From: Neophaeotheca triangularis | Taxonomy: Eukaryota | NCBI GenBank assembly: GCA_054600435.1 | Contig: BAAIJX010000001.1 | Span: 806,001-870,000 of the forward strand | Length of the DNA: 64,000 bases | Direction: 5' to 3' | In this document: positions 20,596 to 39,525 of the stretch, piece by piece | How positions within the stretch are numbered: the stretch's first letter is position 1 | Layout: every line of letters begins with the position of its first letter | Notes under the pieces: generated by a model | The model's database searches: none | Told to the model about the DNA's origin: nothing | Seen by the model: only the letters and a program-made list of their open reading frames with translations | Translations under genes and position numbers: made by a program

Positions 20596-21456
20596 CTATT
20601 GCCGCCTCCGAAAGACCAACGTAACAACAGTCTGCCCCTTCTGTCCCCCAAAACTAAACTCCCTGTAGTGTCCTTCCTTGACATATTCCAAACCACCTGC
20701 GCCATCTCCCACGAGCCATTGGATCAGCTCTTGCTTCGTCCAATTGCAAGACGTAACGATCAGATAGCACCCTAACTTAATAAGTGGCACGACCTTGTCC
20801 CGATAAACTTCGCAAGGGTGATGTCCACTCTCACTCCTCGGCATAAGCGAAATAGCATCAAATGTCCCCTTATCCAGCACGACGTCAAAACCATTGCCCA
20901 ACCACGCTCCCGGCTCAGCGCTCAAGAGATCCCACTGCTCGAACGTGATAGCTCCAGCCCCAGCATCCCCATCACCTTCGCTCATCAACTCCCTAGCCAC
21001 GCCAATTCTCCTAGCCAACTCCACACTCGCTTCGCTATAATCCACACCCACCATCTCCCCGAGCCAACAATCCTCAGGCTCATCAGTGCTAGCCTCCCTC
21101 TCCCTCAGTTCAAACAACATATGCCCATTCCCAGTGCCCAGATCCAGAAACCGCGAAACCAGTTTCGAAAGCACCCCCTCCTCTTCCAAAGCTTCCAGCT
21201 CTTTGATCACGACGTTTTCCGCATCGCTGTCGTCGAACCAGACTTCGCCCTCGTCGTTGGCGTCGTGGGTGAAATTCGTAACTTCGCGGGCGTAGATGTC
21301 GTCCCAGCTGTGGATAATCGCGTGAGTGGGTTGTTCGGATGGCCGGCTGCCGTGGTGTGCGCGTGGTGTGTGCCTTACATACTACTCTTTCGTGCCGAGT
21401 TTGCTGGGGTCGAGCAGTTTTGGCCCGGCCGAGGCGGTTTCGTTTGGGCTGGCCAT
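20596..21456 (-). CDS. EFM4: Protein-lysine N-methyltransferase (eEF1A), 2 exons
   Basis: Exon 21456-21383 (PSKLGTKE), intron 21382-21308, then YWDDIYARE..GEVWFDD..FLDLGTGNGHML..GVDYS..VLDKGTFDAISL..VTSCNWT..FSFGG. Confidence 0.9.
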
Positions 21457-21782
21457 GGTGCGTGACGCTGCCGAAGTTTGGGCTGATACGTAACTTTCGA
21501 TTTGATCTTTGGCGTTCAACTCCAATCGTGGAGATTGAGAGCTGACCTGGCAGAAAGTGGCTGTTTCGATCCTTGAGAGTAAGGTAGCGAGGGTTGTCGT
21601 TTGATTTGTTATCTTATCATCACCAACGCCTTATCGATAGGTACCGTCGTGAGCGTCATGCACGTGGGCATGCAAGATCTCGACTTTACATCGAGGACTT
21701 GTCTTCGACACATAGAAACCTTTTGTTAGGTCAAAGTGTAAAAAAGCAAGAGGAGAAGTACACGGCTACTGCCTATCGACCA

Positions 21783-22694
21783 ATGCTACCAGCGCTGCGT
21801 CCACTCCTCCGCCCTTTACCCCTCCTGGGCCTCTCGACCAGCGGCCTGCTGCTCGCAGCAACCCTCAACCGCGCTTCCAGCGCGCAACACTCCACAATGA
21901 GCAACGCCACAGCCCAAACTTCCTGGTCAATAACTCCCTACACCCCTCGCCACGAGAAGTGGCCCTACAGCCCCAGCGACTTCAGCCGCCAGGACCCATC
22001 TTCCGACGACTCCTTCTACAGCTCCCCTCGCTTCGTAACCCACATTGACGATGCCGCCATAGCCTCGCTGCGCGAATACTACCACGCGAATCTCCCCCGC
22101 AAAGGCAGGATTCTCGATTTTTGCAGTTCGTGGGTGAGCCATTATCCCCCGGAGGTCGAGCGAGCGGCGGAAAGCGGGGAGCTGCAAGTGATGGGCATGG
22201 GCATGAATAAGAAAGAGCTCGATGCGAATGAGGTGCTGAATAGCGGTCGCATGTTGGTGGATCTGAACGTCAAGGCTAACGTCGCTGCGGCGCTCGAGGA
22301 AGCCGGCGTGGAACTGGAAGAGGGTGGCTTGGATGCGAGTACTTGCGTCGTGAGTATCGATTACTTGACCAAGCCTGTGGAGGTGCTATCCTCCTTGAGA
22401 GAGGCTACGAGGCAGGGTGGGAGTGTGCACTTGGCTATCAGTAATAGGTGTTTTCCTACCAAAGCGGTTGGGAGGTGGTTGAGGGTCGAGGAGGAAGAAA
22501 GGCTGGCGATGGTGGGCGACTACCTTTGGTTTGCTGGGTGGAGAGGTATTGAGATTGTTGAGCTTAGCAACGGAAAGATCAGCGAGGAGGAGAAGGAGAG
22601 AGGGCAAGCCCAAGGTGGCCTGCAGGGATTTATGAGTATGATGGGAATGGCTAGTCGGGATCCAATATGGGTCGTGCGAGCGGTCAAGGAGTGA
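21783..22694 (+). CDS. Class I SAM-dependent methyltransferase-like protein, possible mitochondrial presequence
   Basis: First in-frame ATG at 21783; DDSFYSSPRFVTHIDDAAI, ILDFCSSWVSH, CVVSIDYLTKP and SNRCFPTKAV. Confidence 0.85.
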   Translation: MLPALRPLLRPLPLLGLSTSGLLLAATLNRASSAQHSTMSNATAQTSWSITPYTPRHEKWPYSPSDFSRQDPSSDDSFYSSPRFVTHIDDAAIASLREYYHANLPRKGRILDFCSSWVSHYPPEVERAAESGELQVMGMGMNKKELDANEVLNSGRMLVDLNVKANVAAALEEAGVELEEGGLDASTCVVSIDYLTKPVEVLSSLREATRQGGSVHLAISNRCFPTKAVGRWLRVEEEERLAMVGDYLWFAGWRGIEIVELSNGKISEEEKERGQAQGGLQGFMSMMGMASRDPIWVVRAVKE

Positions 22695-37355: not shown

Positions 37356-37437
37356 GCCTCGATAGTATAACGGTTAGTACAACAGTCTCATAACCGTGAG
37401 AAATCTGTGGATGACAGTTCGATTCTGTCTCGAGGCA
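37356..37437 (+). tRNA. tRNA-Met(CAT), elongator type, with 10-nt intron (37393-37402)
   Basis: Acceptor GCCTCGA/TCGAGGC plus A; D arm; anticodon stem ACAGT/TCTGT with the U31-U39 pair typical of elongator Met; loop CT-CAT-A; T arm GACAG-TTCGATT-CTGTC; T-runs downstream. Confidence 0.93.
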
Positions 37438-37992
37438 CTCTTAAATGTTGAAGGGAATGATCAACTTATTTCCTTTTCTTTTGCTTTTCTTTTGACCCTA
37501 TTTCGCTTTTTTTTTTTTTTTTTTGCCCTATGTAGTTCAATGGAATAGTATACTGACTCTACAGATTGCTCCTAGCCGGGTATCAGATAGTGCACTCAAA
37601 TGCCTAGTCTCGATTTATTACCGAAGAGCTACCTACGTACACCACGCAAAGAGACGACTTGCCCGTTGAAAGAAAGCATAGAGAATGGTGAACACGAGAA
37701 AAAGTTTGAAACATTTTTCCTACAAGGTCGCTGCGTTTGAAACAGACGTCGCTACTTCTTTATCAGATGATCTCGCAGACCCAAACACGCATGTCAAACC
37801 CAGCAATAATCGCCCTAGGATTCGATACCATGACTGCTGTTGACCGCGCCGTCAGTTTCAAAGGTTGAATTCTGTTCGCCTTAGCGGGGCTGTTGGCTCG
37901 GGCACGGACTCTATCAAAAAGGCACGGCCCCTGTCAGCGGAAAAGGGCACTGTCCCCCCCCCCTCTCCCCCCCGGCTGCAAAAAGCCCAGTC

Positions 37993-38003
37993 AAAAAACA
38001 AAA
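37993..38003 (-). terminator. Pol III oligo-T terminator of the 5S gene
   Basis: Minus strand reads TTTTGTTTTTT, 17-27 nt after the 5S 3' end. Confidence 0.7.
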
Positions 38004-38098
38004 GTCCAAAGAAGAACATACATACAACAGGTGGGATTCCCACGTGGTCACCCACCGTAGTACTAATCACCCGCTTTAGTGCTTGAATTTGGCAGAGC

Positions 38099-38179
38099 TA
38101 AAATGTGAGGGTACAAATTGTACGTATTTTACCTAAGCAACGTTGTGTTACCACATGTTCTGGCTTTAGAACATGTAGC
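38099..38179. other. 81-nt palindrome-rich insertion in the 5S gene, with a GCT duplication
   Basis: Minus strand: GTCC-GCT-ACATGTTCT AAAGCC AGAACATGT-GGTAACA-CAACGTTG-CTTAGG-TAAAAT AC GTACAA T TTGTAC CCTCAC ATTTTA-GCT-CTGCC. Confidence 0.75.
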
Positions 38180-38184
38180 GGACT

Positions 38185-38211
38185 GCAAAAATCGCCTACG
38201 GCGATTTTTGC
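38185..38211. other. 27-nt perfect hairpin insertion in the 5S gene
   Basis: GCAAAAATCGCC-GTA-GGCGATTTTTGC, a 12-bp perfect stem with a 3-nt loop, immediately after 5S position 35. Confidence 0.8.
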
Positions 38212-38269
38212 GGATGCCTTAGATTCACTAAGCTGTGGTCGTATGTGCCAGCCTTTCCAGTTGCAGCAA

Positions 38270-38276
38270 ATATATC
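38270..38276 (-). promoter_or_regulatory. TATA-like element at about -29 of the 5S gene
   Basis: Minus strand GATATAT lies 24-30 nt upstream of the 5S 5' end (38246), the spacing described for Neurospora dispersed 5S genes. Confidence 0.6.
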
Positions 38277-39525
38277 ACCTTTCCGGCAGGGTCTTGTTGC
38301 TGGGGAAGCAAGTACCTCGTGGAGATGGGACGAGGTCGCAAGCCCCTGGCATCCTCAACCGCCAGAAGGCATCTGCGGGCCTAGCGATTTCGGCAGAAGA
38401 TTCGAGCCCTCTGGCTTCGCAAAGCAATCATAAGCTCGCGCTTGGTTCTGCCCAGCCTTGAGAGACCTTCGAGAGGCCTCTTGAGCATCGAAGAGCTCGT
38501 ACCACGGCGGCAGAGGGACTGGTACGATGTCCTAGATACTTTCTCTGTCAAGCAGGGCGCTGGAACCGAAAAGCAAGTCGCCGCGTTTCGGATGAGGTCG
38601 TGTCCCTATCGATCGGAGATTCGCTCATCACGATGAGCTCTAGGTCGATCTCGAGTGTAGGCCCCTAGCAGCTGCTCGAAGACGCACGGTATCAGTCCGC
38701 TTCCGAGTCGAGCGTCATGCAGAGCGGAAACAGCGCGAAATCGCCGTTTCGACTCTTCGAACCAGACGACTAGCGCTGGGAAGCTGGTAGGTACGCTGTT
38801 AAGCATGTATTCCTCCCTGGTATTGGGGCTTTCATACAGCGTACGCGAGGTGGATCCAGCCGGACTACCGCCCTTTATCGACTCGGGCCCTTCGTGACAC
38901 TGTGAAAGCTACGCAAGACGATGGCGAGCAAAGAAAACCCTCCAGGGTGCGGACATAGCACGAGCAACCAGCCTCCAAGGCCAAGGCTGTAACAATCAAT
39001 ACAAGTACAACACGCTATACTACCAAATCCCTTCCAAAGAAACACTCCGCTCCCTTCGCTCACAATCCTCCAAAGCCGTTGATGATGATCCAAGCAAGAG
39101 TGGTGACTTGAGCTAGTACAGATTTGTACAGAAATACAATATAATACAAATACAATACAACGAAGCGAGCAAGCAAATGCATTTTCCGTCCGAGTTGTGG
39201 TGAACAGCGCCATGCAAGCGCGGCAAAGACACAGGGTACCAGGTTGCGTCCCCTTTTTAGGCCTGCACTTGTCTTTTTGCGATCCCTGATAACAATTTTC
39301 CATGTGTACTCCGGGTAGCGCCATCGAGCCGCAGTGTTTGATTTCCAGAAGTCCTCTCTTAAGATGATTCACCAGGTGGTGTACTAAACGGACCTAACAC
39401 ACACACGTTGGATATGCAGGAGCGGAGGGAGAAAAGAAAAGCCGGCTTTTATGATGATACAGCTTCCCAACGCCCATTGAAAGCCATCTTCCCGGAGCGA
39501 GTGAAGTGGGCAGCGGACTCATCGT

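Follow-up and report, generated by a model that had tools for sequence, protein, structure and literature searches.

A 64,000-nucleotide (nt) stretch of the genome of the fungus Neophaeotheca triangularis (GenBank assembly GCA_054600435.1, contig BAAIJX010000001.1, positions 806,001 to 870,000; here called the window) carries on its minus strand, at 38246..38020, a 5S ribosomal RNA (rRNA) gene of fungal type that is 227 nt long and is interrupted in loop C by a non-coding block. The block measures 113 nt, comprises three to four hairpins and occupies the place of CGTCC in that loop. Read on the sense strand, the order is 5S positions 1-35, a 27-nt palindrome (insert 1, or hairpin 1), the octamer AGTCCGCT, an 81-nt insert (insert 2) and the remaining 5S sequence. 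The block belongs to a small 5S-associated insert family that is polymorphic at this site, where the locus occurs in two states, filled and as an uninterrupted canonical 119-nt 5S gene. It is a new form of 5S-associated insertion, and exchange between 5S paralogues is the route of spread that we tentatively favour.

An empty allele and a family of filled copies

A search of public sequencing runs returned 21 runs. The share of sampled words was 0.81 in X1, 0.29 in X2, 0.17 in X3 and 0.14 in X4, and about 0.04 in the RNA-labelled runs X7, X8 and X10-X20, several of whose labels are guesses. X1 to X4 were compared with the window as Logan contigs, which break at repeats, and the results below refer to the 22 pieces listed among 204 matching ones. 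X1 may be the sample from which the window was assembled. X2 is another sample of the same organism, X3 is organism B from another study and X4 is an air metagenome.

The empty allele is present in X2 and X4. A 119-nt contig of X2 (record 15) starts at 38284 in upstream flank specific to this locus, runs to 38212, continues with GGACG and resumes at 38098, with 41 letters on the shorter side of the joint. The same joint, 38098 to 38212, lies in a 2786-nt contig of X4 (record 20) with 37 letters on its shorter side. On the sense strand the empty allele reads GGCATCC-CGTCC-GCTCTGCC, which is the canonical loop C of a 119-nt gene. In X2 and X4 alike, the flanks are about 4% diverged from the window, and the two have many variants in common. 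The X4 contig is collinear with the window through the downstream flank and the 5S gene; its upstream sequence is unrelated and leaves a loose end at 38248.

The filled allele was recovered outside X1 as well. Record 19 of X3 covers 38142-38285 with 6 differences, spans the 5' junction together with both inner junctions and carries 39 nt of upstream flank, a flank that is near single-copy in X1 (depth 166.6 versus 129.7). The insert contig of the window itself is found in X1 without differences (record 5, 38147-38219) at a single-copy depth of 123.5, compared with 101.6-129.7 in the flanks.

Diverged copies of the block accompany it. X1 holds two further insert contigs, one matching 38148-38221 with 4 differences in 74 letters (record 6) and the other 38154-38219 with 5 differences in 66 (record 7). 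X2, though empty at this locus, has a 723-nt contig (record 14) that matches 38155-38247 with 9 differences. These other insert contigs are 5-8% diverged from the window copy, and they keep the same internal order, hairpin 1, AGTCCGCT and hairpin 2, both in the same genome and in the isolate that is about 4% diverged. Because both inserts and the octamer recur together, we regard the block as one unit. The 3' part of insert 2 varies among copies, since two contigs of X1 and three of X2 match the window only rightward from 38123 on the plus strand, within the last hairpin of insert 2, and share a different sequence leftward, and since one X2 contig skips 38100-38122. Within the window, blastn-short found no further copy of the gene or of the inserts; it returned the gene matched to itself, the self-matching palindrome and two hits no longer than 13 nt.

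Contig depths suggest that the block occupies a minority of 5S genes. Summed depth over 38160-38203 reaches 1875 in X1 and 1610 in X2, with flanks at 84-130, and over 38116-38159 it is about 806 in both, so that the inserts stand at 6-18 times the single-copy flanks; summed depth is not the same as copy number. The 5' part of the 5S gene sums to about 7800 and the 3' part to about 21000-22000. By these depths most 5S copies in the genome are uninterrupted, and roughly a minority of the large 5S family, perhaps a tenth, would carry the block.

An earlier note on this DNA, made from its letters alone, had proposed a small insert family tied to 5S genes and had suggested a search for empty sites and for further copies. 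Presence and absence at this locus and the diverged copies in X1 and X2 support the family, the uninterrupted genes of X2 and X4 supply the empty sites, and the inserts are not unique. Two other claims of that note fare less well. Its two separate palindromic insertions are better read as a single unit, in which the inserts and the 8 nt between them recur jointly. Its recent insertion is weakened by the single-copy depth of the window copy and by the differences (4/74 and 5/66) that separate the other two X1 copies from it. As no near-identical donor for the window copy was seen, the event here is not a recent one, and gain of the block and its loss by back-conversion are equally likely.

Anatomy of the gene and of the block

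The coordinates of the features are collected in Table 1. The Rfam 5S model RF00001, in glocal mode, matches 38150..38019 with 40.4 bits (E 6.9e-05), above its gathering score of 38. The 5' half that this alignment draws from insert 2 is false and adds only about 1 bit, as the 3' part alone (38098..38019) scores 39.3 bits in a 5'-cut match to model positions 42-120. The genuine 5' part (38246..38212) gave no 5S match in the Rfam search, its 35 nt being too short to score. Removal of gene positions 36-62 and 71-151 leaves 119 nt in which helix I has 9 bp, helix II 4+4 bp and helix III pairs GGCA with TGCC. Since this core folds, and since an uninterrupted gene is found at the same locus in X2 and X4, 38246..38212 is the real 5' part of the gene. 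The core fold and the empty allele also bear out two intact 5S halves with paired helices, as the earlier note had described them, and its perfect 27-nt hairpin and multi-hairpin insert of 81 nt in loop C are both present.

At 227 nt and with internal T runs, the gene departs from the usual 5S gene of about 120 nt without an internal polymerase III stop, whereas the empty allele is 119 nt long. Its outer parts are ordinary. The 3' part includes the stretch that corresponds to the internal control region. Downstream, runs of four and six T (T4 and T6) start 17 and 22 nt past the gene end. Upstream, a TATA-like ATATATTT begins at -29, listed also as GATATATTT when read from the sequence over -30 to -22 (38268..38276, minus strand). 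Both flanks agree with the -29 TATA and the T-run terminator noted before. The 5S sequence resembles the Pezizomycotina type. The locus is a dispersed nuclear 5S rRNA gene of a filamentous-type fungus.

Table 1. Features of the filled 5S rRNA locus, in window coordinates
Feature	Position	Strand	Description
5S 5' part, gene 1-35	38212..38246	-	5' strands of helices I, II and III
Insert 1, 27-nt perfect palindrome, gene 36-62	38185..38211	-	12-bp arms, 3-nt loop
AGTCCGCT, loop C remnant between the inserts, gene 63-70	38177..38184	-	CGTCCGCT in the empty allele
Insert 2, 81 nt, gene 71-151	38096..38176	-	register ambiguous by 3 nt (GCT at each end)
5S 3' part, gene 152-227	38020..38095	-	helix III 3' strand, helices II, IV and V, helix I 3' strand
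TATA-like GATATATTT	38268..38276	-	-30 to -22; putative, read from the sequence
Downstream T4 (+17 to +20) and T6 (+22 to +27)	37993..38003	-	presumed native polymerase III terminator

The arms of insert 1 are 100% complementary over their full 12 bp. In a survey of the 64-kb window for inverted repeats with arms at most 12 nt apart, it is the sole fully complementary pair of at least 12 nt among the 25 longest of 43. As DNA, insert 1 folds at -12.7 kcal/mol (z -6.5) and the entire block at -23.6 kcal/mol, a value equalled by none of 200 shuffles (-10.2 +/- 2.27 kcal/mol). Insert 2 holds two clear hairpins with 9-bp arms each and one small hairpin. The clear ones are ACATGTTCT/AGAACATGT at 38153-38176 and AGGTAAAAT/ATTTTAGCT at 38096-38134, the latter with an inner GTAC...GTAC. 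Rfam returned for the inserts only a match to AS-pc01 at chance level (16 bits, E 5.9).

All that the filled site shares with the empty one is ATCC at its left edge and GCTCTGCC at its right, and the block therefore replaces CGTCC. An alternative parse has two inserts of 27 and 81 nt and a C-to-A change in the octamer between them. No parse yields an empty site plus a clean insertion with target duplication for the whole block. GCT stands at both ends of insert 2 and is a possible 3-nt repeat for that insert alone. Hairpin 1 is flanked by an imperfect (A/G)TCCGC, which as a direct repeat of Starship type would need an extra deletion of 5 nt. The terminal 8 nt at either end of the block match as complements in 7 of 8 places; for an A/T-rich end this does not exceed chance. 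The inverted-repeat listing of the block shows only its internal hairpins. Judged by their letters, the junctions thus give the block neither a convincing terminal inverted repeat nor a convincing target duplication.

Expression, spread and origin of the block

Filled copies probably yield for the most part a product of about 60 nt or nothing useful, and would then be pseudogenes. Insert 1 contains a sense-strand run of five T (T5) at gene positions 56-60 (window 38187-38191), right after the GC-rich stem, and insert 2 a sense-strand T4 at gene positions 144-147; the earlier note names neither run. For yeast polymerase III, a T5 is reported to give intermediate and a T6 full release, and an RNA hairpin beside a weak T-tract to strengthen termination (PMC9278858). 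Because a GC-rich stem and T5 follow each other on the sense strand, polymerase III should largely stop near +60. The block also pushes the internal control region 108 nt further from the start and breaks the conserved sequence of loop C.

The spread of the block is, in our tentative view and at somewhat less than even confidence, best explained by ectopic gene conversion or recombination among dispersed 5S paralogues. A passive insert haplotype that encodes no enzyme would pass between the dispersed 5S genes in either direction, the flanking 5S homology serving for ectopic gene conversion or homologous recombination. The filled copies would be dead, as polymerase III would mostly release an RNA of about 60 nt ahead of the remaining gene. 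We favour this route because the block is without transposon hallmarks, because a 5S-like octamer with a linked base change sits inside it, and because its composite order is kept across copies. The perfect canonical loop C of the empty allele argues in the same direction, as does the lack of an identical donor among the contigs seen for a window contig that stands at single-copy depth. In addition, the X4 sequence turns unrelated at the 5' edge of the 5S gene, and recombination between 5S copies would give a break exactly at such a boundary. A spread through pseudogene copies has been proposed for prokaryotic 5S expansion segments (PMC7812874), and this parallel also speaks for conversion.

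Several points weigh against it. Termination at T5 is extrapolated from yeast polymerase III, and an RNA that is read through would, in its minimum-energy fold, retain all 5S helices. The variable 3' parts of insert 2, with the break at 38123 and the skip of 38100-38122, look like deletion derivatives of a transposon, and the GCT repeated at the ends of insert 2 may represent a target duplication of 3 bp. Fungal mobile elements are proven to target 5S genes. Conversion leaves the first entry of the hairpins into a 5S gene unexplained.

We prefer conversion to a possible but less probable alternative, namely that the block, or each insert, is a tiny non-autonomous element that enters 5S loop C and is moved by an enzyme encoded elsewhere. 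A Starship-type tyrosine recombinase, a Dada-type or other DDE transposase or a homing site-specific nuclease would be the candidate movers. Such an element is suggested by the presence and absence of the block at an otherwise collinear locus, by its multiple diverged copies and by its palindrome-rich build. It would be consistent with the GCT at either end of insert 2 and the (A/G)TCCGC that flanks hairpin 1, and the copies that depart from the window at 38123 could be deletion derivatives or longer relatives. The junctions speak against it, with neither a clean target duplication nor a convincing terminal inverted repeat (the 7/8 complementarity of the ends is about what chance gives) and with 5 nt replaced by the block. 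At 113 nt the block lies far under any described Starship and is small even for a miniature inverted-repeat transposable element; of the marks of that class, multiple copies and presence/absence polymorphism were found and a flanking target duplication was not. The earlier note had seen no mobilising enzyme in the window, in agreement with our Pfam scan, in which the 21 open reading frame (ORF) translations yielded no recombinase or transposase and only ordinary cellular families.

Starships provide a strong fungal precedent for 5S targeting. Those that target 5S genes (Voyager, Osiris and the Enterprise and Arwing families) resemble the block in that they are fungal, lie inside the coding part of dispersed 5S genes, break the occupied copy and vary in presence and absence among isolates (PMC9156397, PMC11162782, PMC10104507, bioRxiv 10.1101/2024.06.28.601215). 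As these sources describe them, they measure 27-700 kb, encode a DUF3435 tyrosine recombinase and cargo and are flanked by direct repeats of 6-16 bp that match 5S, whereas the block is 113 nt long, carries no gene and no clear repeat and replaces 5 nt; DUF3435 occurs in none of the 21 window ORF translations. Voyager is placed 20 bp from the 5S 5' end (PMC9156397), in contrast to the loop C position of the block. The reported fact that 5S rDNA holds 23% of 222 curated Starship sites, at no fewer than five distinct internal sites (PMC11162782), favours a mobile element, as does the report that a cut-down Starship can be moved in trans (PMC10104507). In two Aspergillus elements, cggctgagcggacg, which carries the automated annotation 'TIR' (terminal inverted repeat), contains the loop C motif, with the direct repeat ctgtt elsewhere (PMC11162782); we take this as a lead only. 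The scar of an excised Starship, another suggestion of the earlier note, is unlikely, since Starship excision is reported to leave a clean site, the one Starship tested leaving no footprint (PMC10104507).

Dada transposons offer a second comparison. Dada-5S, like the block, targets a multicopy polymerase III gene, the 5S gene of fish, and sometimes replaces target bases (PMC8869645), and Dada is reported from four fungal phyla (PMC5751038), both of which speak for a mobile element. Unlike the block, Dada encodes a transposase and makes duplications of 6-7 bp, and the Dada-5S target in fish, ATTCCCAGGCGGTC, lies in another part of the gene (PMC8869645), which counts against it as a mover here. 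The specific form of this reading, in which the block is a miniature enzyme-less element homing into fungal 5S loop C, for example a natural mini-Starship or a 5S-specific relative of Dada, is rather unlikely.

It is improbable that the 227-nt gene is expressed, either as an expanded 5S rRNA or with the inserts removed from the RNA in the manner of introns. The 227-nt RNA has a predicted minimum-energy fold (-75.7 kcal/mol, z -4.56) in which helices I-III are kept and the inserts form self-contained branches of loop C. In the predicted folds the block thus behaves as an expansion segment, a self-paired module of loop C that does not disturb the core fold. The promoter-like and terminator-like flanks are preserved as well, and prokaryotic 5S expansion segments are described as clustering in loop B, helix III and loop C (PMC7812874). 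An expanded 5S had been among the suggestions of the earlier note, but the sense-strand hairpin and T5 at +56-60 should stop polymerase III, to judge from the yeast enzyme (PMC9278858), and they weaken it. The interruption of the conserved loop C sequence, the 108-nt shift of the internal control region and the majority of uninterrupted copies indicated by contig depths point the same way. Removal as an intron finds no counterpart in the structure. In hairpin 1 the 12-bp stem runs without a break from the first base to the last. It lacks the two 3-nt bulges around a 4-bp helix of a bulge-helix-bulge intron, and this motif is absent from the folds.

The prokaryotic expansion segments (Stepanov and Fox 2021, PMC7812874; Halococcus morrhuae, PMC7530397) resemble the block in that they coexist with normal copies. 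Near-identical inserts are described in pseudogene copies, with a proposed spread by homologous recombination (PMC7812874). They differ in being transcribed in operons, some as the only 5S of the cell (PMC7812874), whereas in the window a eukaryotic polymerase III gene has a T5 stop within it and a cut through the conserved loop motif. The survey reports 5S expansion segments only from bacteria and archaea and names no eukaryotic case (PMC7812874).

A foreign or organellar source of the hairpins, such as bacterial terminator-like sequences or mitochondrial repeats that entered a 5S gene in a single capture as a break was repaired, is very improbable. A scan of metagenome contigs for the core of hairpin 1 gave 29 loci, all bacterial-looking or unrelated, and a scan of prokaryote genomes gave one match, in a metagenome-assembled genome (MAG) of Gammaproteobacteria (L030). 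The pattern TCCGCAAAAATCGCC-NNN-GGCGATTTTTGC occurs in L030 and in ten soil loci of high GC content (L002, L005, L006, L008, L009, L013, L016, L018, L019 and L020), which have hairpin 1 with the same TCCG ahead, and the common TCCGC is the 5S loop C motif, so that microhomology could guide a capture. Of the matching bases, however, 22 are fixed by the search pattern itself, and the additional matches, at about 7-8 of 12 positions in one of about a dozen unrelated match families, are by our estimate within chance. None of the 29 metagenome loci resembles the gene beyond 35 nt, and Rfam found one tRNA and no 5S gene in the 14 of them that it scanned. Hairpin 2 had no match in viral contigs, and the block none in plasmids or phages, which weakens the captured palindromic DNA suggested by the earlier note. 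An insert depth of 6-18 times single copy would also be lower than expected if a close mitochondrial copy existed. Capture would moreover address the origin of the hairpins alone and not their spread.

Fungal mitochondria contain double-hairpin or palindromic mini-elements that are short, non-coding, located within rRNA genes and seemingly mobile. The block is likened to them by description, as both form hairpins in rRNA genes; it differs in its position in a nuclear polymerase III gene. The ten soil loci and L030 (401-430) are a matter of their own. They have in common a motif of two conserved hairpins, the first resembling GGGCGAAAACCACGCTTTTCGCCC and the second being TCCGCAAAAATCGCCGCAGGCGATTTTTGCCAAT, with flanks that differ by locus. 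No Rfam family matched this motif, which looks like a bacterial repeat of terminator type or a REP-like repeat.

An artefact of assembly, or a pseudogene that is private and unique, is hardly a credible reading: X1, the best match, may be the source sample of the window itself, and its contigs, which break at repeats, do not span the 3' junction 38098/38099 among the pieces listed, but X3, from a different study, spans the 5' and inner junctions at this locus and so contradicts the artefact for which the earlier note had devised a test, further diverged copies exist in X1 and X2, and the empty allele differs by exactly the block.

Other 5S copies, genomic surroundings and significance

The contigs also contain traces of further 5S sequences. 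Summed depth in the 5S 3' domain (38020-38098) is about threefold that of the 5' part. Several long contigs diverge after matching 38020-38088 or 38020-38097 only, and in one contig two 5S 3' parts lie head to tail, separated by an A-rich spacer. These observations suggest that the genome contains many 5S fragments truncated at their 5' end; the imbalance of depth may partly reflect that the 35-nt 5' part is hard to match. Loose ends of X2 contigs at 38098 represent other canonical 5S copies with a 5' half unlike that of the window (six contigs, agreement 0.6), and 5S sequences of at least two types seem to coexist in the genome.

Downstream of the gene, a module at 37902-37944 reaches a depth of 386 in X1, compared with about 101.6 in neighbouring bins. 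On other contigs it adjoins the 5S 3' end and skips 75-100 nt (joints 37921 to 38022, 37928 to 38028 and 37944 to 38020). As the module abuts 5S elsewhere, some 5S copies share this downstream flank and the locus in the window has an extra spacer. A poly-C tract with interspersed T at 37957-37975, G-rich on the sense strand, is 11 nt shorter in X2 and X4 and is a homopolymer tract of variable length.

The window is otherwise an ordinary gene-dense fungal region, in which 16 of 21 long ORF translations carry Pfam families. They include LMBR1, zinc alcohol dehydrogenase, DnaJ, ERG4/ERG24, Efg1, PFF1 protease and CLU, together with two fungal-specific transcription factor domains, a fungal AAA protein, photolyase and P450. 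A tRNA gene lies 580 nt from the 5S gene on the opposite strand (37356-37438, plus strand; Rfam 53.9 bits) and has an intron of about 12 nt after the anticodon, which we read as CAU from the Rfam alignment; ARAGORN assigned it no name.

The dispersed 5S genes of filamentous fungi are known as landing sites of the giant Starship elements. Full-text searches of the published literature turned up no account of small non-coding hairpin blocks at a fixed site in some of the fungal 5S copies. Filled copies bear on the annotation of these genes, since Infernal in its default mode misaligns them, here by drawing a false 5' half from the insert, and counts of 5S copies and surveys of Starship target sites can misclassify them for this reason. 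The filled or empty state at this locus is usable as a strain marker.

If the block were mobilised in trans, it would point to an unrecognised 5S-specific recombinase or nuclease and also to a minimal recognition site. As a miniature homing element of 113 nt, it would be smaller than any other site-specific passenger known from eukaryotic polymerase III genes, and it would bring its own hairpin and T5 stop and so silence the copy it occupies. If instead the conversion that we favour is true, the block would be a eukaryotic counterpart of the movement between copies proposed for prokaryotic 5S expansions, and would give a handle on the sequence exchange that remains among dispersed 5S paralogues.

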